Source: a virus (lineage: Duplodnaviria > Caudoviricetes). From it: a DNA stretch of 64,000 bases. A program made the translations under genes and the position numbers. The notes under the pieces are model-generated. The model saw only the letters and a program-made list of their open reading frames with translations, was not told the origin of the DNA and did no database searches. Below are positions 2,493-36,747 of the stretch, piece by piece (the first letter of the stretch is position 1; each line of letters begins with the position of its first letter). Location: the IMG/VR virus record IMGVR_UViG_3300021387_000688; one strand, 5' to 3'.

Positions 2493-2522
2493 ACCCCTCT
2501 CGTGAAAGAGGGGTTTCTTTTT
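2493..2522. terminator. Intrinsic terminator between convergent units
   Basis: AACCCCTCT/AGAGGGGTT hairpin followed by T tract. Confidence 0.7.
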
Positions 2523-3537
2523 ACTCTTGAATGTAAGTTGTGTTTCTTCCTGCGTGTTTAGCAGCGTATAGATATGAGTCTAATGTTTTTATATTATCTT
2601 CTAATGAAACTCCATCCTTCCAAAAACAACCTCCTACGGAAATAGTGAATGGAGCTTTTATACTATCTTCTACTCTTGAAAGAGTTAGTATTTTAACTCT
2701 TATATCTTCTGCAATTACTTTTAATTTGTTAAAGTTGGACATTCCTTTTAATACAATAATGAATTCTTCCCCACCGTATCGTATAATTAAATCACCATAC
2801 CTTATACAACTCTTTACAGTTTTAACTAAGAATCTTAAACTTTCATCCCCATTTAAGTGACCATGTTCGTCATTAATTTTTTTGAAGAAATCAATATCAA
2901 TCATTAAAAGACCAGAATCTTTTAAGTTATCTTTACTTAATGCACATCTGTTTTTACAACCGGTTAAAGGATCTATACAAGCTTGATTTTCCAATTTGTT
3001 GTTTATAGTTATCAACGCCTGGGTTGCAAAAGTAACTGAGAATAAAGTAAATACATAAGAAGAAGAGACACCGCCTAATATGAACATTAAGTTTCTTTCC
3101 ATATAATCACTTGGCATGTTAATATGGAAATGCACTTTAATTATTAGAATAACCATTGCAAAGAATAAAGGAAAGATTCCCATCACTGAAAGTATTACGT
3201 TCTTATATCCTACTAATCCAAAAGCCGAACCTAAGATAATCCAATATGTTATGAAAACTGCATCTCTACTTGTAAATAACATTGCTGGAAAAGATATAAA
3301 TGCAGTTACTAAAACTACTAAACAACTATATGCATAATACTTTTTAAGTTTAATCATAATTGCACCTGAAAGTACTATGAAAGTCCAACTAGTTACGTTA
3401 GCAATAAAGTTAACTAATGTAAGTAAGTCTAAATTAAACCCTCTCTGCATAATAATCGGAATCGCGAATCCGTTGGATACTGCACCACAAATTAAGAGAG
3501 TAATAGCTATTAGTTTATCAATATTTTTGTTTCCCAT
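2521..3537 (-). CDS. Membrane-bound diguanylate cyclase (GGDEF domain)
   Basis: Multiple N-terminal TM segments; DPLTG..NR, DIDFFKKINDEHGHLNGD, RYGGEEF, RxxD I-site. Confidence 0.92.
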   Translation of the reverse strand: MGNKNIDKLIAITLLICGAVSNGFAIPIIMQRGFNLDLLTLVNFIANVTSWTFIVLSGAIMIKLKKYYAYSCLVVLVTAFISFPAMLFTSRDAVFITYWIILGSAFGLVGYKNVILSVMGIFPLFFAMVILIIKVHFHINMPSDYMERNLMFILGGVSSSYVFTLFSVTFATQALITINNKLENQACIDPLTGCKNRCALSKDNLKDSGLLMIDIDFFKKINDEHGHLNGDESLRFLVKTVKSCIRYGDLIIRYGGEEFIIVLKGMSNFNKLKVIAEDIRVKILTLSRVEDSIKAPFTISVGGCFWKDGVSLEDNIKTLDSYLYAAKHAGRNTTYIQE

Positions 3538-3605
3538 TTTAGTAATTTTTATTCCTCTGATTCTCTATATTGTAATATACAATATAATAAGTGGAGGTAT
3601 TATCG

Positions 3606-4271
3606 ATGGCACACAACTTTCAAAAAATCTATGCACCGTTTGGTCGTAAGAATCCAAACGATCGTCTTGTAGACACATCAATTTATTCTCGGGGCTGGGT
3701 TCAGATGTTTTACGAAAACAATGTAAAGATGAAGGCATCTGAAAAGATTGACGGAACTTCTGTAGGTATTGTTTGGGATGGAGAAAGAATCTCCTTCATT
3801 GGACATACAGAAAAGTCTCAGTTTGCTCCTCGTTATCTTGAATATCTTAACAGCCGTTTTGGTACTCCTGAATTCGAATCTGTAGTAGAAGAGATTGCAG
3901 GTGACAAAAAGGTTACAATCTACGGTGAAGGTATCTCAAAGGATTACAATGTTCACTACGGTTTCCCAGATGGTGAATTTATCCTTTACGATATCCAGAA
4001 AGAAGATGGTACATTCTGGTGCCGCGAAGCTGTTGCAAGTGTAGCTACAAAACTTGGCATGATTATGCCTTGGGAAACAGATATGACTATTCAGGAAGCA
4101 ATCGACTTCGTAAAGACTCGTCCAGCATCTAAGCTTAATCCTGAAAACAAAATGGAAGGTTTGGTACTTCGTTCACCAATTGAACTTTACAGCGCTAATC
4201 ATTTTGAGCGCATTATTTGTAAAGTTAAGGTAAAGGATTTCGTAGACCTTAAGGATTACAGGACTGAGTAA
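3606..4271 (+). CDS. RNA ligase (Rnl2-like nucleotidyltransferase)
   Basis: Motif I EKIDGT, YGE, EGLVLR, C-terminal CKVK. Confidence 0.8.
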   Translation: MAHNFQKIYAPFGRKNPNDRLVDTSIYSRGWVQMFYENNVKMKASEKIDGTSVGIVWDGERISFIGHTEKSQFAPRYLEYLNSRFGTPEFESVVEEIAGDKKVTIYGEGISKDYNVHYGFPDGEFILYDIQKEDGTFWCREAVASVATKLGMIMPWETDMTIQEAIDFVKTRPASKLNPENKMEGLVLRSPIELYSANHFERIICKVKVKDFVDLKDYRTE

Positions 4272-7618: not shown

Positions 7619-7897
7619 ATGCAGGATGCAACAAAAGAACCTAAAATGTTTAAGAAGAAACCGGTATCGATTCGGGCAATGAAATGGACCGGAAAGAACA
7701 TTGATGAGATTACAGTTTTTTCAAAAGGCGATGCTTTTTTGGACGGAGATGAACTTGTAATTAAAACATTGGAAGATGGTAAAACAGGAAAAGCAAAGCA
7801 TGTGGCTTCGGTAGGGGATTATATTATTGAAGGTGTACATGGAGAGTTTTATTTCTGTAAACCAGACATCTTTGAAGAAACTTACGAAGATGCATAA
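7619..7897 (+). CDS. Conserved phage protein (KKPV..GDYII.G..GEFY.CKPDIF family)
   Basis: Recognisable family motif. Confidence 0.7.
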   Translation: MQDATKEPKMFKKKPVSIRAMKWTGKNIDEITVFSKGDAFLDGDELVIKTLEDGKTGKAKHVASVGDYIIEGVHGEFYFCKPDIFEETYEDA

Positions 7898-7900
7898 AAA

Positions 7901-7946
7901 GAAAACATTTTAGAAAACTTAACCGTTTGCACTAACTATATTAAGA
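7901..7946 (+). promoter_or_regulatory. Conserved promoter box of tRNA array 1
   Basis: 42/46 nt identical to 10146-10191. Confidence 0.75.
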
Positions 7947-7968
7947 TATGTTAAAAGGAGACAGAAAT

Positions 7969-8088
7969 ATGATGTTTATATCAAACGAAACATTTGAAAC
8001 ACTGATTGTAACACAGAATCATATGTCTGGCCTTTTTTCAGGCTCGAAAGGGTTCCGTTCCCTTACACAGGGAGGAAAATCCGATTAG
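7969..8088 (+). CDS. Leader peptide 1 (39 aa; Gly/Ser/Leu/Gln/Arg-codon rich)
   Basis: AAGGAG RBS; MMFISNETFETLIVTQNHMSGLFSGSKGFRSLTQGGKSD; stop abuts antiterminator. Confidence 0.8.
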   Translation: MMFISNETFETLIVTQNHMSGLFSGSKGFRSLTQGGKSD

Positions 8089-8140
8089 GGGTTTCTTACA
8101 GTTAAGGAATTGTAAGGAACTCGAAAGAGTTCCTTTTTTT
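8089..8140 (+). terminator. Attenuator 1: antiterminator 8089-8122 versus terminator 8114-8140
   Basis: GGGTTTCTTACAGTT/AATTGTAAGGAACTC overlaps AAGGAACTC-GAAA-GAGTTCCTT-T tract. Confidence 0.85.
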
Positions 8141-8156
8141 ATTCCTTTTTAATTTT

Positions 8157-8230
8157 GCGGGTGTAACTCAGATGGCTAGAGTGTCGTCCTTCCAAGTCGA
8201 ATGTCAAGGGTTCGAATCCCTCCACCCGCT
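8157..8230 (+). tRNA. tRNA-Gly(TCC)
   Basis: Cloverleaf, loop CTTCCAA. Confidence 0.92.
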
Positions 8231-8236
8231 CTTTAT

Positions 8237-8308
8237 CGCGTAGTCATTCAGTGGCTAGGATCTCTGTCTTCCAAACAGGTGACGAGGGTTCGATTCCCTC
8301 CTGCGCGA
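8237..8308 (+). tRNA. tRNA-Gly(TCC)
   Basis: Cloverleaf, TCTGT-CTTCCAA-ACAGG. Confidence 0.88.
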
Positions 8309-8316
8309 CTATATAT

Positions 8317-8390
8317 GTCTCATTAGTGTTAGCGGCTTAGCACCCTAGTCCTCCAAACTGGGAGCATCGGTTCGAATCCGATATGGGGCT
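8317..8390 (+). tRNA. tRNA-Gly(TCC), C33
   Basis: Cloverleaf, loop CCTCCAA. Confidence 0.85.
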
Positions 8391-8393
8391 TGG

Positions 8394-8476
8394 TACATAA
8401 AGGTTTCGTTTAGAAGATTGCTGCACCTTTAAGCAGGCTGAAACGAATAGAAACTGAATCGAAAGATTCTAATGTA
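8394..8476 (+). ncRNA. Pseudoknotted spacer RNA
   Basis: TACAT/ATGTA, TTCGTTT/AAACGAA, loop ACCTTTA complementary to TAAAGGT, GAATC-GAAA-GATTC. Confidence 0.45.
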
Positions 8477-8502
8477 GGAGTAAGCATAAGAATCTTATGA
8501 AT

Positions 8503-8576
8503 GCCTCGGTACTCCAACTGGCAGAGAGGACGGACTTAGAATCCGTAAAGTGAGAGTTCGAATCTCTCTCGGGGCA
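8503..8576 (+). tRNA. tRNA-Leu(TAG), short variable loop
   Basis: ACGGA-CTTAGAA-TCCGT; 5-nt variable region. Confidence 0.88.
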
Positions 8577-8582
8577 AATTAT

Positions 8583-8667
8583 GGAGCCTGGCTAGGACGG
8601 TAATAGGTATGCCTGGAAAGCATATGGTCGCGAAAGCGCCTAAAGGGTTCGACCCCCTTAGACTCCG
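8583..8667 (+). tRNA. tRNA-Ser(GGA)
   Basis: TATGC-CTGGAAA-GCATA, long variable arm, G73. Confidence 0.88.
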
Positions 8668-8682
8668 TAGGAGGGAAATTAT

Positions 8683-8778
8683 ATGAAAGGTAAACTTCAC
8701 AAACTGTGGGTTAAGTTTGTAATAGGGATTGTTTATATTTATATAAAAATCACTAATATCTTTCATAAGAAAAAATAG
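8683..8778 (+). CDS. Small cationic/hydrophobic peptide (31 aa)
   Basis: AGGAGG RBS; MKGKLHKLWVKFVIGIVYIYIKITNIFHKKK. Confidence 0.5.
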   Translation: MKGKLHKLWVKFVIGIVYIYIKITNIFHKKK

Positions 8779-8785
8779 AATTTAT

Positions 8786-8870
8786 GGATCGTTAAGTTAG
8801 CGGCTATACAGGGTGACTTGAAATCACTTTACGTGGCAACACGGCGCAAGTTCGAGTCTTGCACGATCCG
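8786..8870 (+). tRNA. tRNA-Ser(TGA)
   Basis: GGTGA-CTTGAAA-TCACT, long variable arm, G73. Confidence 0.88.
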
Positions 8871-8885
8871 CTCTAATTAAAAAAG

Positions 8886-9069
8886 TTGGGTAAACCTCGA
8901 CCCAGTTGGATTCCTTCCTGAATAGGATTCAATGTTAAGGACTAGAGGAATTTACAGAAACTGCTTTAAGTAGCAAGTTCTCGAAAGATCGTTTATTCCC
9001 CCTCCCTAAAACGATTGAGTAGCTTTACGAGTGAATATAAGGGGTAGCTCTAAGTGGGTCAGGCCACTC
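8886..9069 (+). ncRNA. Putative multi-pseudoknot ncRNA
   Basis: Hairpins TTGGGT/ACCCAG, GATCGTTT/AAACGATT, AGTGG/CCACT with loop segments complementary to downstream GAGG, AAGGA and AGGGG. Confidence 0.4.
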
Positions 9070-9077
9070 CCTGTTAT

Positions 9078-9148
9078 GTACCTGTAGTATAACGGTAATA
9101 CGCGACCTTGCCAAGGTCGAGTCGAGGGTTCAACTCCCTTCAGGTGCT
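9078..9148 (+). tRNA. tRNA-Gly(GCC)
   Basis: CGACC-TTGCCAA-GGTCG. Confidence 0.92.
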
Positions 9149-9150
9149 CT

Positions 9151-9230
9151 AAATCAAAATGGCCAGGGAGCCCTAACGGATGCTGGGCGGCTTAATGATG
9201 TTACTGAATGGTGGTAACCCATTTTGATTT
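9151..9230 (+). ncRNA. Structured spacer RNA
   Basis: 12-bp closing stem AAATCAAAATGG/CCATTTTGATTT around CCAG/CTGG with GAGCC:GGCTT pseudoknot potential. Confidence 0.5.
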
Positions 9231-9238
9231 AATTTTAC

Positions 9239-9310
9239 TCCTCCGTGGTGTAATTGGTAACACGCGAGATTCTGGTTCTTGAATTCTGGGTTCGAGTCCT
9301 AGCGGAGGAA
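9239..9310 (+). tRNA. tRNA-Gln(CTG)
   Basis: CGAGA-TTCTGGT-TCTTG. Confidence 0.9.
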
Positions 9311-9358
9311 AGCACATTTGCCGAGGCCTACTAGCGAAACGAAGAGACGGCAATCTTG

Positions 9359-9440
9359 GAGGAGTAGTGAAAAATGGTTGTAGGGATAAGGAACTTCTGT
9401 TGCCGCGGAAAAACAAGAGTGGGTTCGATTCGCCACCCTC
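9359..9440 (+). pseudogene. Degenerate tRNA-like sequence
   Basis: T-arm-like GTGGGTTCGATTCGCCAC and TTCTG/CGGAA arm; D arm and acceptor defective. Confidence 0.35.
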
Positions 9441-9448
9441 GGAATTAT

Positions 9449-9522
9449 GGGATCGTAGCATAACTGGATAATGCACATGTCTACGAAACATGCGATTGGG
9501 AATTCGAATTTCCCCGATCCCA
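9449..9522 (+). tRNA. tRNA-Arg(ACG)
   Basis: CATGT-CTACGAA-ACATG. Confidence 0.9.
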
Positions 9523-9558
9523 CTATAAGGAGATTTGCTTATGAAGTTTCATTAGGAT

Positions 9559-9804
9559 ATGTATAGAAGATATCCTAAAAAACAAGATCACGGTACACGT
9601 GGATCAAAAAGCGAGTCATTGCTCTATTGGGGCAATTATAAGAAGGGTCTAAGATTATCTGCAAAGGAATATTTTAGACAATATAAGCATAGAGTTAAAC
9701 AAGCTCTAAAAGTAATTACTATTGAATGTACTGACGAAGAAGTTGAAGAATTCTATTTAAGGAGTCAGCATCGGGTTCAGGATCAATGGTATGAATTTGA
9801 TTAA
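9559..9804 (+). CDS. Small basic protein preceded by in-frame mini-ORF MKFH-TAG (9541-9555)
   Basis: 81 aa; the strong RBS sits in front of ATG 9541. Confidence 0.6.
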   Translation: MYRRYPKKQDHGTRGSKSESLLYWGNYKKGLRLSAKEYFRQYKHRVKQALKVITIECTDEEVEEFYLRSQHRVQDQWYEFD

Positions 9805-9807
9805 AGC

Positions 9808-9930
9808 ACTTGCGACCTAGTCAAGTATAAAAGTACATTAGGCGGCACTAATCGATCTGCCATAGAAATGATCGAGAGACCTTTGACAGTTAAAACGGAG
9901 AAGTCAATAGTAATATTGTTAAACTGTCAA
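9808..9930 (+). ncRNA. Pseudoknotted spacer RNA
   Basis: ACTTG/CAAGT hairpin with loop CCTAGT complementary to ATTAGG; TCGATC/GATCGA; TTGACAGTT/AACTGTCAA. Confidence 0.4.
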
Positions 9931-9936
9931 TATTAT

Positions 9937-10018
9937 GCTTCAGTGGTGGAATTGGTATGCACACCTGTTTAAGGGGCAGGCGCCGAAAGGATTGAGAGTT
10001 CGAATCTCTCCTGGAGCA
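9937..10018 (+). tRNA. tRNA-Leu(AAG)
   Basis: CCTGT-TTAAGGG-GCAGG, long variable arm, A73. Confidence 0.85.
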
Positions 10019-10028
10019 CTAATTTATA

Positions 10029-10156
10029 AAAATGTTTTCAAAGTGCCTAACGCAACACCGACGCGCTATGCGGGAGCGAGGAGTAAAATAAAGCAGTCCT
10101 ATGTAAGTAGGAAACAGGCAACGGTAACGATCCTGGTGGAATGTTGAAAACATTTT
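10029..10156 (+). ncRNA. Structured spacer RNA
   Basis: 13-bp closing stem AAAATGTTTTCAA/TTGAAAACATTTT, TGCCT/AGGCA, GTAA tetraloops. Confidence 0.5.
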
Positions 10157-10191
10157 AGAAAAATTAACAAGTTGCACTAACTATATTAAGA
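10146..10191 (+). promoter_or_regulatory. Conserved promoter box of tRNA array 2
   Basis: 42/46 nt identical to 7901-7946. Confidence 0.75.
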
Positions 10192-10247
10192 ATATAAGTT
10201 TTAAGTAACTTGTAAACAAAGACTTGATATAAAGGAGTATGTATATT

Positions 10248-10364
10248 ATGATGAACGTATTTAACACTACAACTAAAACAACTACAAAGCATAATCATAT
10301 GAATATGCATACATTCACAAACACAAATAAATTTTTCTTTAATAAGAAAAATGGAGTGAGTTAA
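10248..10364 (+). CDS. Leader peptide 2 (38 aa; Thr/Asn/Lys/Phe/Met/His rich)
   Basis: AAGGAG RBS; MMNVFNTTTKTTTKHNHMNMHTFTNTNKFFFNKKNGVS; stop lies inside the antiterminator. Confidence 0.85.
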   Translation: MMNVFNTTTKTTTKHNHMNMHTFTNTNKFFFNKKNGVS

Positions 10365-10423
10365 GTCTTTTAATTTTATCCGAATTTTAGAAGGCTTAAC
10401 TCGAAAGGGTTAAGCCTTTTTTT
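10358..10423 (+). terminator. Attenuator 2: antiterminator 10358-10402 versus terminator 10391-10423
   Basis: GAGTTAAGTCTTTTAA/TTAGAAGGCTTAACTC overlaps AAGGCTTAACTC-GAAA-GGGTTAAGCCTT-T tract. Confidence 0.85.
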
Positions 10424-10437
10424 ATTGGATTTTTTAT

Positions 10438-10523
10438 GCTACAGTCGCATAGTGGTTGATTGCACCGGATTTGTAATCCGGTAGGTTTATAGCCTCGCGG
10501 GGGTTCGAATCCCTCCTGTAGCT
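10438..10523 (+). tRNA. tRNA-Thr(TGT) with long variable arm
   Basis: CCGGA-TTTGTAA-TCCGG, GCU/AGC acceptor, AGGT/GCCT variable stem. Confidence 0.82.
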
Positions 10524-10526
10524 TAT

Positions 10527-10596
10527 AAAAGCACAAGTTGTTCCTATTTGCTGATGAAGCAATACACTGTTAATGTATTTGATACAACTCGCTTTT
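10527..10596 (+). ncRNA. Scaffold RNA copy 4 carrying an Asn(GTT) anticodon stem-loop
   Basis: AAAAGC-ACA-AGTTGT-TCCTATTT...AATACA-CTGTTAA-TGTATT...AT-ACAACT-C-GCTTTT. Confidence 0.75.
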
Positions 10597-10604
10597 AATT
10601 TTAT

Positions 10605-10679
10605 GGTGCCTATGGTGGAGTGGTCTAACACGCTTGACTGTGGATCAAGATTTCGTCGGTTCGAACCCGACTAGGTACC
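10605..10679 (+). tRNA. tRNA-His(GTG)
   Basis: G-1:C73, CTTGA-CTGTGGA-TCAAG. Confidence 0.92.
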
Positions 10680-10693
10680 CTCAAATGTAATTT

Positions 10694-10767
10694 GGTCCGT
10701 TAGCTCTAATGGTCAGAGCGGATGCCCGTTAAGCATATGGTTGCAGGTTCGAGTCCTGCACGGACCG
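10694..10767 (+). tRNA. tRNA-Asn(GTT), C33
   Basis: Loop CCGTTAA, G73. Confidence 0.88.
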
Positions 10768-10777
10768 TATATTTTAT

Positions 10778-10852
10778 GCTACGTTAGCTCTTAACGGCTA
10801 GAGCGCCTGACCTGTAATCAGGATGTTGGGGGTTCGAATCCCTCACGTAGCT
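10778..10852 (+). tRNA. tRNA-Thr(TGT), C33
   Basis: CCTGA-CCTGTAA-TCAGG. Confidence 0.88.
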
Positions 10853-10859
10853 TATTTAT

Positions 10860-10930
10860 CCGCAGGTCGCCTAATGGTAAGGCCTCTGACTGAAGATCAG
10901 AAGTTTGGGGTTCGATTCCCTGTCTGCGGG
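10860..10930 (+). tRNA. tRNA-Phe(GAA), G37/G73 variant
   Basis: TCTGA-CTGAAGA-TCAGA. Confidence 0.8.
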
Positions 10931-10935
10931 CTTAT

Positions 10936-11009
10936 GTTGAGGTAGCAAAGTTGGTCAATTGCGATGGACTGAAAATCCATTGATGTGAGTTCGATTCTCA
11001 CCCTCAACA
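10936..11009 (+). tRNA. tRNA-Phe(GAA)
   Basis: ATGGA-CTGAAAA-TCCAT. Confidence 0.9.
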
Positions 11010-11015
11010 ACGCAT

Positions 11016-11090
11016 GCTACTTTAGCTCAAATTGGTTAGAGCACGAGTTTCGTAAACTTGGGGTTACAAGTTCGAATCTTGTAAGTAGCT
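11016..11090 (+). tRNA. tRNA-Thr(CGT)
   Basis: CGAGT-TTCGTAA-ACTTG. Confidence 0.9.
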
Positions 11091-11108
11091 TGATAAGGAG
11101 ATTTTTTT

Positions 11109-11276
11109 ATGGATTGTGGAGCTCCAAGAATTGAAGGTCCAATGGCTAAAAAGGTTTATGAATACATGATTAATGAATCTGAAAAAGCCAAAGCCAATAA
11201 AGAATCTAGAGAGGAAAAACGAAAGAAACGTTTAAAGGAATTTGAAGAACTTATGAAGAAGAAACAGAGGGCTTAA
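11109..11276 (+). CDS. Small charged hypothetical protein (55 aa)
   Basis: AAGGAG RBS; MDCGAPRIEGPMAKK...KKKQRA. Confidence 0.6.
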   Translation: MDCGAPRIEGPMAKKVYEYMINESEKAKANKESREEKRKKRLKEFEELMKKKQRA

Positions 11277-11344
11277 CCTTCTATTCAGCCCATTGGAATT
11301 GAAGGTGCCCAGATTAGATGGAAAAGACATTTTCAATTTTTAAT

Positions 11345-11419
11345 GGACTACTAGCGCAACTTGGTTAGAGCACGTGCCTTTTAAGCATGGGGTTCTGGGT
11401 TCAAATCCCAGGTAGTTCA
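11345..11419 (+). tRNA. tRNA-Lys(TTT)
   Basis: CGTGC-CTTTTAA-GCATG. Confidence 0.9.
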
Positions 11420-11434
11420 CTTCCGATTTATTTC

Positions 11435-11507
11435 GGGCCCGTAGCTCAATTGGCAGAGCAATACACTTTTAATGTATGGGTCGACAGTTCGAATCTGTCC
11501 GGGCTCA
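11435..11507 (+). tRNA. tRNA-Lys(TTT)
   Basis: ATACA-CTTTTAA-TGTAT. Confidence 0.92.
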
Positions 11508-11521
11508 CTTCGATTTTATAT

Positions 11522-11596
11522 CGGCCTGTAGCGCAACTTGGTTAGAGCGAGTGCCTCTTAAGCATTAGGTTCTGGGTTCAAATCCCAGCAGGCTGA
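11522..11596 (+). tRNA. tRNA-Lys(CTT)
   Basis: AGTGC-CTCTTAA-GCATT. Confidence 0.9.
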
Positions 11597-11603
11597 CTTA
11601 TTT

Positions 11604-11682
11604 GGGCCTTTGTCAGAATGGGATTGGAACACACTTTTAATGTGTCGCGAAAGCAGAGCGGGTTCGATTCCCGCAGGGCTCA
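11604..11682 (+). tRNA. tRNA-Lys(TTT) with extended variable arm
   Basis: ACACA-CTTTTAA-TGTGT followed by GC-GAAA-GC arm. Confidence 0.8.
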
Positions 11683-11684
11683 AC

Positions 11685-11766
11685 GGGCCATTGATCGCAG
11701 AATGGGATTGCAACAGACTCTTAATCTGTTTCTTCGGAAGACTAGGTTCGATTCCTAGATGGCTCA
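11685..11766 (+). tRNA. tRNA-Lys(CTT) with extended variable arm
   Basis: ACAGA-CTCTTAA-TCTGT followed by TC-TTCG-GA arm; extra nt before D stem. Confidence 0.75.
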
Positions 11767-11827
11767 TCAAAAGTAAGTAGAGTTCTCGAGACAACGCTTA
11801 CTATATTTAATTTGAATTTGATATATG

Positions 11828-11900
11828 CAGCTTATAGCTCAACTTGGTAGAGCCGTGGCCACTTAATTACGGGTTGGAGGTTCAAATCCTTCTAAGCTGC
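11828..11900 (+). tRNA. tRNA-like RNA with aberrant anticodon arm (CTT-containing 8-nt loop)
   Basis: Good acceptor, D and T arms; CGTGG-CCACTTAA-TTACG. Confidence 0.6.
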
Positions 11901-11920
11901 CTTATACAAATATGATATAT

Positions 11921-11992
11921 GGGTCCTTCGTATATCGGTTAGTACTGCAGACTGTTAATCTGCGTGGGTAGGTTCGACTCCTACAGGACCCG
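11921..11992 (+). tRNA. tRNA-Asn(GTT)
   Basis: GCAGA-CTGTTAA-TCTGC, G73. Confidence 0.9.
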
Positions 11993-11999
11993 CTAAAAT

Positions 12000-12127
12000 A
12001 AAATTGCACAAGTTGTTCCTATTTTTTAGGCTCATAACCCGAAAGCGGTGGTTCGATTCCATCTCCCCTTGTCTTCGTAAGGGGATAGTGTAGTGGTAGC
12101 ACGGCGTATTATACAACTCGCAATTTT
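12000..12127 (+). ncRNA. Scaffold RNA copy 5 carrying a circularly permuted tRNA (Y RNA/YrlA-like topology)
   Basis: Order: CAT anticodon loop, T arm, acceptor TCCCCTT-loop-AAGGGGA, D arm, all inside the scaffold stem. Confidence 0.75.
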
Positions 12128-12131
12128 TTAT

Positions 12132-12204
12132 GCTGGGTAAGTTCATATGGTTGAACGCCGCCCTCATAAGGCGGATGTACGTGGTTCGAGTCCACGACTC
12201 AGTA
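12132..12204 (+). tRNA. tRNA-CAT (Met or Ile2)
   Basis: CCGCC-CTCATAA-GGCGG. Confidence 0.85.
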
Positions 12205-12210
12205 AATTAT

Positions 12211-12281
12211 GCTAGCTTCGTACAGTGGTAGTACACATGCATGGTAAGCATGTAATGAGGGTTCGATTCCCCCAGTTAGCT
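12211..12281 (+). tRNA. tRNA-Thr(GGT)
   Basis: CATGC-ATGGTAA-GCATG. Confidence 0.85.
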
Positions 12282-12283
12282 CT

Positions 12284-12343
12284 AATGCATAAAGTGTTCC
12301 TATTAAAAACTTGACTGAAAATCAATTGTATACACTTCGCATT
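12284..12343 (+). ncRNA. Scaffold RNA copy 6 carrying a Phe(GAA) anticodon stem-loop
   Basis: AATGC-ATA-AAGTGT-TCCTATT...TTGA-CTGAAAA-TCAA...TAT-ACACTT-C-GCATT (compensatory changes). Confidence 0.75.
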
Positions 12344-12382
12344 TTTCTATTCTTTTAAGGGGCCGGCGGCCCCTATTTTTAT

Positions 12383-12457
12383 GGTTGCGTAGCTCAACTG
12401 GATAGTAGCAATGGACTTCGAATCCATAGGTTGTAGGTTCAAATCCTATCGCAATCA
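12383..12457 (+). tRNA. tRNA-Arg(TCG)
   Basis: ATGGA-CTTCGAA-TCCAT. Confidence 0.88.
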
Positions 12458-12515
12458 AAACCTTTTCGAAAATCTGATTCCCGGATTCCGCTATATTATT
12501 ACTGAGGTACTTAAT

Positions 12516-13352
12516 ATGGCAAAAGAGAAATATTTCCGTTCACTTCCAGATCAGCTTTATCTTTACAAGAGATTTGATTCAGTTGGAAAAAAGGAAGGTT
12601 GTGAGTGCGATGAATGCGGGGCTTGGTTACAGAATATTGTAACTGTAGTAGGTTCTGTTGATCACTTGGAATATCATCTCGGCCTTACATGTTGTGAAAA
12701 ATCATCAAAGGGTATGAAGAATATCAACTTGGATGATAAAACAACTCAATATGTTAAGTACTGGAAGAAAAGATTAAATCAGCTTAAAAACTTCCGCAAG
12801 GATTTCGATAAGAAAATGGCTTACGGAAAGGTAATTGCAATTCTTGGTAGCTTCTATTATAACGTTCAAAAGAAAACCACTTCAATCGATTTTACTTTCC
12901 TCTATGAAGGGGGAGATTGGTGGCGCATGAATAACGACGTTTCAATCACAGGTTATTACAATAAAGTAAAAGAAACTTTTGCAGATGTTTGGGATGCGAT
13001 TGATTGGAAAGGATATGAAGGTTGTGCAGCCGCTGCAACTTCAAAAGAAGTTTGGGATATCCTCCATGACAATTCTCGTAACGTTCGTTTAAGAGATTTC
13101 AATAAAAGAACAGAAGAAGACTATCCCGAATGGGAACGTTATAACATAGTTAGAAATGCAATCCGCCAGTCTTTTGATTACAATAGCGGTTGGGGCGAAG
13201 GTAAAACTATTAAGCTTCCCGTTTGGTTCAACAAAGATGAATATGACGACATCTTTGATAAAGTACTTGCAAGTTATAATGGATATCAGAATCTGGATAA
13301 AACAACTTTCATCAATGGATACGATGCAGAAAAAATGTCCCGATACAACTAA
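12516..13352 (+). CDS. Hypothetical protein with CxxC..CC zinc-finger-like N-terminus
   Basis: GAGGT RBS at MAKEK; CDECG and CC motifs. Confidence 0.7.
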   Translation: MAKEKYFRSLPDQLYLYKRFDSVGKKEGCECDECGAWLQNIVTVVGSVDHLEYHLGLTCCEKSSKGMKNINLDDKTTQYVKYWKKRLNQLKNFRKDFDKKMAYGKVIAILGSFYYNVQKKTTSIDFTFLYEGGDWWRMNNDVSITGYYNKVKETFADVWDAIDWKGYEGCAAAATSKEVWDILHDNSRNVRLRDFNKRTEEDYPEWERYNIVRNAIRQSFDYNSGWGEGKTIKLPVWFNKDEYDDIFDKVLASYNGYQNLDKTTFINGYDAEKMSRYN

Positions 13353-23210: not shown

Positions 23211-25404
23211 TGAGCGAATTATGGGATATGATGGAATGGGAGAAGTTAAATAAATTGAAACCAGAAGTTACTACAAATGCAAAAGAAGGCGAGTACACTA
23301 CAATGGAATTGGAAAAAGATCCTTTCCATGATTGCCGTTGGGGACAGATTAATGCAATACCTGAACATAATGTTTATCAGAGTTATTGCAAATTAAAAAA
23401 TAAGCCAGCTGAATGTAAAGGTTGTAAAGACTTTTGTCAAAAACCAAAGCTTGAGGCCCCAACAACTACATACAAGCTTAGAGTAAGTTGGTTTGATGAA
23501 TCCTTTAGTCCTAGTGGGGACGGGGGCGAATTCGAAAGAATTTTCCTTTCAGAACAGGATGCAAGAGAAGAACTAGCTCTTTATATTGAAAACCACAAAG
23601 AGTGGGAAATATGGTGGGACCTTTGTAAAGTAGAAAAATTAGCTTCTGGCCATTTAGAAAGGAGAGATAAGTAATGGCGCCATACGATCCTCTTTCATTT
23701 TTAGAAAAAGAACAAGAAAGAGATAAAGAATATAAGGCACTGAAAGCATCTATTATATTTGATGCAGTTATATTTGCAGCTGTTTTATTTATTTCTTTAG
23801 CTTGTAAAAGAATGGGCTTGAATTAAGGAGAAATATAAATGGAACTTAAAGAATTAAAGAAATTCGGATATACAGAAAAAATCGTATACGATACTGCACA
23901 GGAAACATTACCAGATGGTAGAAGGGTAACTACAGAAACCCCTACAGATTCCTACTTTATGAAAATCTACAGTTTTGAAAATGGCTGGATTAGATGGAAG
24001 GTTTGTATAGGTAATACAGATGTTGAGGGGGTTTGGTGGGTAAGATTAACTCTTGAAACTCGAGATGGTTACGACGAAGAGGAATTCGAAAGCACTGACA
24101 ACTTTGACGATTTACTTCTTTTGTTGGAAGAACATACCGAGAAGTGTTGTCAGATTAAGGAGTTGTAACTTCCTAAAAAAGCTATAATATTATCATTAAG
24201 AGGGGTGGCCTTAATGAAAAGAATTACTATTAAAGCTTATAAATCTTTCTTCAAAAAGGAAGATCCTATTGCAATTGTAACTATTGTTTCTGGTCGAAAA
24301 GGTTTTCTAAGATGGCTTGAACATTACAACTGCCATTCTTTTGAAATCTTTGATGAAGATGGAAATAAATTAACTCCTATAACTGTTTTGAAAAAAGGTG
24401 GGGAATATGATTCTTAGTGAATACTTATCCGTAACAGATATTCAAGGCTTTGAATTTGTAAATATTATAAACTCGCAGGGTGAACTTATAGAAGAAGTTA
24501 AAGAAGAAACTTATGGTTTATACCCTGCAGTTCTCTATAATTATCTTGCACATACAGAGTTGGGCAACTTTAGAGTAATTGAAGCAAAACCGCTTGGAAG
24601 TGAATTAACTATTACAGTAGATGAACCTTCTCCTAATGAAGTAGTTTATGAAACTTGTAAAGAGTTTGCAGATCGTATTTGGGGTAAGAAAAACGATAAA
24701 CTCAAAAAAGAATTCCTCAAAAAAGCAAAAGCCGATTTCCTTTATCAAGATGATTATATAATGGATAATGTTTTGAAAAGAGACCCTCTTTTTTGGAAAA
24801 AGTTTGTATAATTATTAACATTTTTGAAAATACCAGTATCCCCGTTTAGCTATATTATTAACGTACGGAGGTGCAAGTTATGGTTTCAAACTGCCTGATC
24901 GAAGCAATCAAAGCAAAGATTAAAGACCCGAAGAATGTACGAATCATTTGTCTAAAGAAAGAATGGAACCATGGGGACCTTCACTTCTACTGGATTTGTA
25001 AAGGAGAAGTTTATCATTATGAAGCTCTCTCAAGAAACGCCCCTTTCCTTTTCAAAGGTACTCTTAAACATTTACCGTTAGAAAGTTTTGAAGCTTTTAT
25101 TCTTCGTAGCCTTGCAAGAACTAAGCCAAATTTAGATAAAACAATTGTTGCAAAGAAATTAAACTTCCCTTCTTTGAATCAGCCAGGCATGTTGAAATGG
25201 GAAACATATTGCCCAGAATTTGAATTATTTAAAGTTCCAAAAAAGACAAAACTTGCAAAACTTTTAATGGTAAAGTCTAGTAATGAAGAAATCAAAATTA
25301 TGAAAGTAGAGGACTTTAAAAAAGAAGATTATGAATATGTGGATTGGAAATACATAAGTCCTTATTGTCAAGAGTTTAGATTATTTGGTGTAAAAGAATC
25401 GTAA
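23210..25404 (+). other. Run of hypothetical CDSs (23210-23674, 23839-24168, 24214-24417, 24407-24811, 24880-25404)
   Basis: Co-oriented ORFs; GCTATA(A/T)TAT boxes near 24181 and 24849. Confidence 0.6.
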
Positions 25405-35576: not shown

Positions 35577-35649
35577 AATAATTATTTAGTATAGAAAACT
35601 TCATCTTCGAAAAAAGCTATATTATAATTGTAATTAATTATTAGTTGTT

Positions 35650-36672: not shown

Positions 36673-36747
36673 GTAAAATTTTTTAACATTTTTGAAACTT
36701 TAGAATCCAAAGAAAGCTATATTATAAGTGTACGTAGGAGGTACGAA

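Follow-up and report, generated by a model that had tools for sequence, protein, structure and literature searches.

The window, a stretch of 64,000 nucleotides (nt) of DNA from the IMG/VR virus record IMGVR_UViG_3300021387_000688 (Duplodnaviria; Caudoviricetes), carries two arrays of transfer RNA (tRNA) genes, each preceded by a short open reading frame (ORF) and a pair of mutually exclusive RNA helices. We are concerned here chiefly with the second of these units, in which an ORF of 38 codons, leader 2, stands in front of tRNA array 2. The window is phage-like, with 35% GC, a baseplate-wedge match and many ORFs without known families; it is densely coding under the standard code and contains 29 tRNA genes. 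Sequencing runs containing the stretch come from sheep and cattle gut samples, and the phage itself is uncultured and giant. The elements of unit 2 are as follows.

10148-10191, plus strand: unit 2 promoter box, consisting of TTAGAAAA, an 18-nt spacer and CTATATT (10181-10187).
10194-10213, plus strand: 5'-terminal hairpin of the leader transcript, stem ATAAGTT/AACTTGT.
10218-10228, plus strand: candidate anti-antiterminator (region 1), complementary to 10361-10371 and upstream of the ribosome-binding site.
10231-10237, plus strand: Shine-Dalgarno sequence AAAGGAG, 10 nt before the ATG and invariant in all relatives.
10248-10364, plus strand: leader 2 ORF, beginning with ATG ATG at 10248-10253, with 38 sense codons and the stop codon TAA at 10362-10364.
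10357-10373, plus strand: antiterminator 5' strand, which holds the last 1.7 (about two) sense codons, the stop codon and a second in-frame TAA.
10387-10403, plus strand: antiterminator 3' strand, which is also the terminator 5' arm.
10389-10426, plus strand: intrinsic terminator with a GC-containing stem of 14 base pairs (bp) (hairpin 10389-10420), a GAAA loop and a run of seven T (10417-10423).
10438-12282, plus strand: tRNA array 2 (ARAGORN and Rfam), which includes an ORF of 55 amino acids (aa) at 11109-11276 and short cassettes.
12358-12380, plus strand: GC-rich hairpin (12358-12374) followed by the T-rich tail ATTTTTAT, closing the gated unit 2.
12382-12458, plus strand: tRNA-Arg(TCG), outside the codon set of leader 2.

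The composition of leader 2 is what first sets it apart. An earlier note on this DNA had counted 34 of its 38 residues as Thr, Asn, Lys, Phe, Met or His, and the count is correct on the sequence; the four remaining residues are V4, G36, V37 and S38, the three commonest (Thr, Asn and Lys) together account for 22 of the 38, and there are no Arg codons. The same note's list of array-2 tRNAs is borne out by ARAGORN and Rfam, which find two Thr(TGT), one Thr(CGT), one Thr(GGT), one His(GTG), two Asn(GTT), two Phe(GAA), three Lys(TTT), two Lys(CTT) and one CAT tRNA, and the tRNA-Arg(TCG) indeed lies behind a separate GC hairpin, as it had said. When anticodons are converted into the codons they read, array-2 tRNAs decode 33 of the 37 post-start codons of leader 2, while in 45 long window ORFs the share of the same codon set is 0.284, or 28.4% (binomial P = 1.7e-14). 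Against all 165 ATG-started ORFs of 30-60 codons in the six frames of the window, leader 2 is an extreme outlier (0.85, with a mean of 0.31 and a standard deviation of 0.10). Chance is thus excluded as the source of the codon match, and AT-richness cannot account for it either, because the Thr, His and Met codons are not AT-driven. The ORF is gene-called in many assemblies; its frame is open in all relatives, indels are in-frame only, and length variants of 38 or 39 codons across lineages stay in frame. A candidate hairpin that would sequester the ribosome-binding site, formed between the start region and codons 16-23, is only partly conserved and is not relied on here.

The end of the ORF runs into the switch. 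The antiterminator pairs 10357-10373 with 10387-10403 over 17 bp at -19.8 kcal/mol (RNAfold; 10350-10404 folded), is roughly isoenergetic with the terminator (-19.3 kcal/mol) and is transcribed earlier than the latter. The helix of 16 bp proposed in the earlier note (10358-10373:10387-10402) is therefore real, extended by RNAfold by one pair, and its exclusion of the terminator holds as well, because both structures use 10389-10403. Pairing of this quality with the terminator 5' arm was matched by none of 2000 shuffles of the upstream 50 nt, and the result was the same in all four units tested. The stop codon of leader 2 (10362-10364) lies inside the antiterminator 5' strand, and a stop codon sits on the switch strand in all six units examined. 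Going by geometry only, a ribosome that completes the ORF must mask or unwind the antiterminator 5' strand, because the stop codon and the last two sense codons lie within that strand. The codon-matched part, on the other hand, ends at 10352, which is far enough upstream that a ribosome stalled there would leave most of the 5' strand free. This would account for the last three codons (Gly, Val and Ser), which need no counterpart in the array.

Two further elements lie upstream of the ribosome-binding site. The stem of the 5'-terminal hairpin reads GTAAGTT/AACTTAC in the relatives L028 and L033, a difference that includes a G-C to A-T double change. The element at 10218-10228 pairs with the antiterminator 5' strand in the full-length minimum-free-energy fold; the duplex has -11.7 kcal/mol (4 of 1000 shuffles do as well), and the core AAAGACTT of the element (8-11 nt conserved) is kept in five lineages. 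Judged from pairing and conservation, it may act as an anti-antiterminator, which would bring about termination in the absence of leader translation, and we treat it as a candidate for that role only.

The same design stands before the other array, in unit 1, with the following parts.

7903-7946, plus strand: unit 1 promoter box.
7969-8088, plus strand: leader 1 ORF, 39 codons and a TAG stop, with an ATG ATG start and the same ribosome-binding site as leader 2.
8089-8142, plus strand: unit 1 switch, in which the antiterminator 8089-8103:8108-8122 overlaps the terminator 8114-8135 and its T-run.
8157-10019, plus strand: tRNA array 1 (ARAGORN and Rfam), with Gly TCC (three), Gly GCC, Leu TAG, Leu AAG, Ser GGA, Ser TGA, Gln CTG and Arg ACG.

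The unit 1 antiterminator (-17.5 kcal/mol) starts one base past the TAG stop, and array 1 begins 15 nt beyond the terminator. Array-1 tRNAs read 14 of the 20 codons at the end of leader 1 (background 0.147, P = 3e-8), which is the sole small ORF that reaches 14. The match extends to isoacceptors: Leu is written as CTN in all three cases and Ser as TCN in all six, the single Arg codon is CGT, and CAG serves for Gln both times. In the phage genes, on the other hand, TTA/TTG are the preferred Leu codons, 31% of the Ser codons are AGY, 70% of the Arg codons AGA/AGG and 58% of the Gln codons CAA; given the amino acids, the joint probability of the leader 1 choice is 2.5e-4. Cross-matching between the units is low in one direction, with only 1 of the 37 leader-2 codons falling in the array-1 set. 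Leader 1 is bipartite: its C-terminal half is enriched in the amino acids of array 1 and its N-terminal half, in each of the three lineages, in those of array 2 (P = 0.03, 3e-4 and 7e-4). This N-terminal half occupies 7969-8025 in the window, 563-613 in L002 and 64-110 in L043, and the amino acids concerned are Phe, Asn, Thr, Lys, His and Met, with one Cys in L043. Leader 1 may sense both amino-acid sets, or it may retain the trace of a leader-2-like ancestor.

The two promoter boxes are about 90% identical over 46 nt, and a 20-mer at their core occurs exactly twice in the window, at 7927 and 10172. The motif GAAA-N16-22-CTATATT occurs 13 times in the window, where 0.9 would be expected, mostly preceding genes. 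Around the arrays this phage promoter class is found only before the two leaders, with another copy just past the tRNA-Arg(TCG) that serves the next gene. The unit 2 T-run (10417-10423) ends 14 nt before the first tRNA (10438), and no promoter fits downstream of either terminator because only 14-15 nt separate the T-run from the first tRNA. The earlier note had named constitutive tRNA synthesis from a promoter downstream of the terminator as a finding that would speak against its proposal; on the sequence there is no room for such a promoter, nor does a phage promoter motif lie within the arrays. Copies of this recurrent promoter-like motif, TTNGAAAA with CTATATT about 18 nt on, stand before many genes of the window, for example at 12468-12497, 24826-24856, 35594-35623, 36694-36723, 45621-45650 (minus strand) and 48512-48541 (minus strand).

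The unit architecture recurs, in the sister unit of the window as just described and in three further lineages of related phages. Relatives in metagenomes were reached by three routes: the neighbouring protein led to L001, an 18-mer of the switch (GTGAGTTAAGTCTTTTAA) led to L002 and L006-L008, and the leader peptides, gene-called in many assemblies, led to P0001-P0023 and the loci L028-L044. Most of the metagenome matches to the 18-mer (22 of 25) are due to chance, the real ones being only L006-L008. The cultured-phage collection gave no match to the window by megablast, blastn or tblastn, and in IMG/VR no match was found to the promoter box and no relatives of the 279-aa protein encoded downstream. 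A profile of the leader-2 alignment, run against 1.8 billion representative proteins, returned a single new lineage, P0023; more distant leaders would not be reachable by peptide homology, as is expected if selection acts on composition only.

Three of these lineages are informative as to how the leaders change. L028-L042 are strains of the window's lineage with the same arrays, and their leader-2 variants show synonymous changes and mostly in-set replacements. In the L001/L002 lineage both units are present and the arrays differ from those of the window: its array 2 contains a tRNA-Cys(GCA) and its leader 2 three Cys codons, the window having neither, and its array 1 contains tRNA-Tyr and tRNA-Trp with three Tyr codons and one Trp codon in leader 1, the window again having none. 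L043, of diverged sequence, carries two Cys codons in leader 2 and three Tyr codons and one Trp codon in leader 1, with the matching tRNAs in its arrays. Counted by amino acid against its own array, leader 2 matches at 32 of 37 positions in L001 and 30 of 38 in L043, and the C-terminal part of leader 1 at 16 of 19 in L002 and 22 of 25 in L043. Between the window and L001 the leader-2 peptides are unlike at 23 aligned positions, and still the number of in-set residues is 30-34 of 38 (33 in L001 counting Cys). Such drift within a fixed set of residues is the signature of selection on codon composition and not on the peptide.

The helices are preserved in a corresponding manner. In the leader 2 antiterminator, five one-sided substitutions across lineages all preserve pairing and none breaks a pair; one of them, the change of the stop codon from TAA to TGA in strains of the window's lineage, replaces A-U by G-U in the helix. 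Within L028-L042 the loop of the antiterminator is free to vary, its two strands being fixed, and in L043 a 5' strand shorter by one base is matched on the 3' strand, leaving a helix of 15-16 bp with -20.5 kcal/mol. In leader 1 of L002 and L043 the distal antiterminator stems differ in sequence and remain complementary, with at least three double changes.

Taking these observations together, we consider it likely that leader 2 is a ribosome-mediated, or leader-peptide, transcription attenuator that turns on array 2 when the codons of its set are decoded slowly. This is the interpretation at which the earlier note had arrived, and it is supported here, in that the sequence-level elements required of a leader-peptide attenuator were found, the anti-antiterminator as a candidate only. 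The scheme takes for granted that the ORF is translated, that transcription and translation are coupled and that the terminator is efficient, and it would run as follows. Transcription would start at the phage promoter with the -10 element CTATATT (10181-10187); a ribosome would load at AAAGGAG and translate the 38 codons, and for 33 of these it would depend on the tRNAs for Thr, Asn, Lys, Phe, His and Met that are encoded downstream. When decoding is fast, the ribosome arriving at GTG-AGT-TAA would cover or unwind 10357-10373, leaving 10387-10403 free to form the terminator hairpin, and RNA polymerase would stop at the T-run, 14 nt before the first tRNA. When decoding is slow, perhaps because charged tRNA for any codon of the set is scarce, the ribosome would still be upstream, 10357-10373 would pair with 10387-10403, the terminator would fail to form and the array would be transcribed. 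The new tRNAs would then speed decoding, closing a negative-feedback loop. Leader 1 would do likewise for array 1, and the two attenuators would act in series, because no terminator was found between array 1 and unit 2.

Several observations weigh against this reading and need to be set beside it. The array 1 of L028 contains a tRNA-Cys, behind an inserted gene, with no Cys codon in its leader 1, and in L033 two residues have changed to ones outside the set (T to V and H to D). The leader 1 of L002 uses TTA, CTT and CTC, and only the Leu CAA and Leu TAG tRNAs were detected; in the window, the C-terminal half of leader 1 still contains Lys, Phe and Thr codons. Two leader-1 variants, P0016 and P0020, which stand in different sequence backgrounds, carry CAG (Gln) where leader 1 has its TAG stop, and their frame continues for nine codons into the antiterminator and terminator. 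Assembly errors are one possible source of them and naturally constitutive variants another, and they could also hint at TAG/CAG interchange. Recoding of TAG or TGA, considered for the leader variants whose stop codon differs, was set aside in view of the dense coding of the window under the standard code. The candidate anti-antiterminator of unit 2 lies upstream of the ribosome-binding site and has no counterpart in unit 1. Lastly, attenuation needs tight coupling between transcription and translation, and this coupling is weak in some Firmicutes. As a whole, the match between leaders and arrays is strong and not absolute, as would be expected of a drifting regulatory ORF in front of arrays that gain and lose genes.

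The metatranscriptome runs are available as assembled contigs only, which show no ends, strand or level and might stem from DNA carry-over. One contig from an RNA run is identical to 7962-8171, from leader 1 through the terminator into tRNA-Gly, and another to 10104-10288, which spans the unit-2 promoter; we draw no conclusion from them, nor from the lack of contig cover at 10372-10538 in the same run.

Among the other explanations we have considered, the one that survives best, improbable as we judge it to be, is a ribosome-dependent switch that reports general translation capacity, such as ribosome availability or a global shut-off, with the codon bias as a secondary tuning. It gains some weight from the fact that, without a ribosome at the stop codon, the local fold is the antiterminator, so that any failure of translation would open the switch too, and from the lack of an upstream anti-antiterminator in unit 1. 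Yet a general sensor would have no need for a pair of leaders whose codon sets hardly overlap and which each fit their own array, nor for the isoacceptor-level match of leader 1, nor for the gain of Cys, Tyr or Trp codons along with the matching tRNA genes.

Less probable still is that leader 2 is no more than a small phage gene of the usual kind, ending in a terminator of its own, with leak-through or other promoters expressing the array and the amino-acid match being a compositional coincidence of an AT-rich genome. Small ORFs are common, and a GC content of 35% makes Asn, Lys and Phe codons cheap; against this stand the binomial probability and the empirical outlier position given above, which include Thr, His and Met codons that AT-richness does not favour, and the repetition of the design before array 1 with a leader rich in Gly, Ser, Leu, Gln and Arg. 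A plain gene would also be expected neither to conserve composition while leaving its peptide sequence unconserved nor to end in an antiterminator that overlaps both stop codon and terminator, for which it has no role.

A choice between terminator and antiterminator that is independent of translation, made by direct tRNA binding as in a T-box or by a protein, with the ORF incidental, is just as improbable in our judgement. T-box leaders do, as is generally known, sense tRNA with such a pair of structures, but an Rfam scan of 7800-12600 at E <= 1 gave tRNA matches and sub-threshold noise only, tRNA being the sole family to reach threshold, with no T-box stem I, specifier or T-box sequence. Against it stand also the shortness of the leader, its strong, conserved ribosome-binding site, a frame kept through in-frame indels and a stop on the switch strand in the six units examined.

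Returning to leader-peptide attenuation as the preferred reading, it is useful to place the phage units among known systems. The multivalent leaders of enterobacteria are those of thr (Thr and Ile codons) and ilvGMEDA (Ile, Leu and Val), to which hisL and trpL may be added. The phage leaders resemble them in that a short ORF, here predicted to be translated, is rich in regulatory codons, that one leader would sense several amino acids and that ribosome position would decide which of two structures sharing a strand is formed, the antiterminator or the intrinsic terminator. In contrast to these leaders, which control biosynthetic enzymes, the phage leaders would control tRNAs, so that the output directly restores the sensed quantity; some 90% of the leader 2 ORF consists of regulatory codons, which stand for six amino acids; the leaders are phage-encoded and come in several codon-partitioned copies; and for the pause or anti-antiterminator (1:2) hairpin there is no more than a candidate in unit 2 and nothing in unit 1. 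The E. coli pheST attenuator with its pheM leader is alike in being leader-peptide attenuation of a component of the translation apparatus in response to charged tRNA, but it controls the synthetase of one amino acid, whereas the phage unit would control the tRNA genes themselves, for many amino acids at once. T-box riboswitches likewise sense the tRNA pool through competition between terminator and antiterminator upstream of translation-related genes; unlike the phage unit, whose sensor is an ORF, they bind uncharged tRNA directly through a specifier codon and a T-box bulge and involve no ribosome. What sets the units apart from classical leader-peptide attenuators is thus that the regulated genes are tRNAs and not amino-acid biosynthesis or aminoacyl-tRNA synthetase genes. 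Neither for phages nor for other systems did full-text literature searches turn up an account of tRNA genes under leader-peptide control, and we view the system as a known mechanism, ribosome-mediated attenuation, applied to a new target class.

Why phages carry tRNA arrays has been debated for fifty years, with codon compensation on one side and the replacement of tRNAs lost to host defences on the other, while the expression of these arrays has, to our knowledge, hardly been addressed so far. If our reading is right, the phage would measure decoding speed codon block by codon block and make tRNAs on demand, and the question of why the arrays exist would become testable, because each leader states the shortages that the phage expects. 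The logic of trp and his attenuation would be extended from amino-acid supply to tRNA supply, and the leaders would offer compact, programmable parts that report the availability of chosen tRNAs.

We also entertain, as a possible and rather doubtful extension, that the leaders sense an attack on the tRNA pool, in which a host anticodon nuclease, for example a PARIS-like enzyme that cuts Lys-UUU, Thr-UGU and Asn-GUU tRNAs, or phage-induced tRNA loss would slow the reading of just these codons, open the matching attenuator and so call up replacement tRNAs for that codon block alone. T5 counters the AriB effector of PARIS with its own tRNAs, the reported AriB targets being tRNA-Lys, tRNA-Thr and tRNA-Asn (PMC12409363); phage tRNAs with anticodon-loop variants serve as counter-defence (PMC10264068), and phage tRNAs take part in retron evasion (PMC11555353). 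The present arrays are like these in that phage arrays replace host tRNAs. The most numerous species of array 2, Lys(UUU) with three copies and Thr(UGU) and Asn(GUU) with two each, include the three AriB targets (PMC12409363), and Lys(CUU) and Phe(GAA), with two copies each, are as numerous in array 2 as Thr(UGU) and Asn(GUU); a link of array 2 and leader 2 to AriB-type targets is speculative. Neither sensing nor regulated expression of phage tRNAs is described in these three reports (PMC12409363, PMC10264068, PMC11555353), and the second makes no mention of promoters or terminators (PMC10264068). If the leaders did sense such an attack, they would form a modular, self-limiting sensor-effector circuit of counter-defence, and the partition of the arrays would reflect the target sets of host tRNases.

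Some features of the arrays and their surroundings deserve mention in their own right. The tRNA-like gene at 11828-11901, which lies among the Lys and Asn tRNAs and is absent from the list of the earlier note, has an 8-nt anticodon loop; ARAGORN gives it the anticodon 'actt' and Rfam scores it as a tRNA at 40 bits. In L035 its counterpart, too, is called with an odd anticodon. The gene might decode quadruplets, act as a decoy or be a copy in decay. Small ORFs are embedded in the arrays, one of 81 aa (9559-9804) and the Lys/Glu-rich one of 55 aa (11109-11276), and both are called genes kept in L035, L036 and L040; larger genes are inserted in or between the arrays of relatives, of 365 aa in L028-L033 and of 286 aa in L035. 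Next to the tRNA region lies the gene of a protein with a GGDEF diguanylate-cyclase domain (2521-3537, minus strand), an RNA ligase gene (PF09414) is found 4 kb upstream, at 3591-4271, and a nicotinamide phosphoribosyltransferase-like gene farther along the window (60176-61462, minus strand).

A repeated cassette has copies in the window at 685-808, 1646-1720, 10531-10596, 12006-12125 and 12286-12345, and in L001 at about 375-520, 1350-1490, 2686-2760 and 3015-3145; its motifs have 4-6 occurrences, where about 0-0.5 would be expected. Its outer stem of 5 bp covaries among the copies (AGUGC/GCACU, AUUGC/GCAAU, ACUGC/GCAGU, AAAGC/GCUUU and AAUGC/GCAUU) and leads to a 3x1 internal loop and then to an inner stem of 6 bp, which reads AGUUGU/ACAACU except in one copy, where it is AGUGUU/ACACUU. 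The cargo varies from a normal tRNA-Leu(TAA) to plain hairpins and minihelices that resemble anticodon stem-loops (loops CUGUUAA and CUGAAAA). The cassette might serve as a signal for processing or ligation, or else be a small mobile unit. One copy encloses a candidate circularly permuted tRNA(CAT) at 12027-12106, in which the T-arm and the 3' acceptor strand precede the 5' acceptor strand and the D-arm; ARAGORN calls a tRNA in this segment only once it has been circularised, and the L001 segment 3040-3128 behaves alike.

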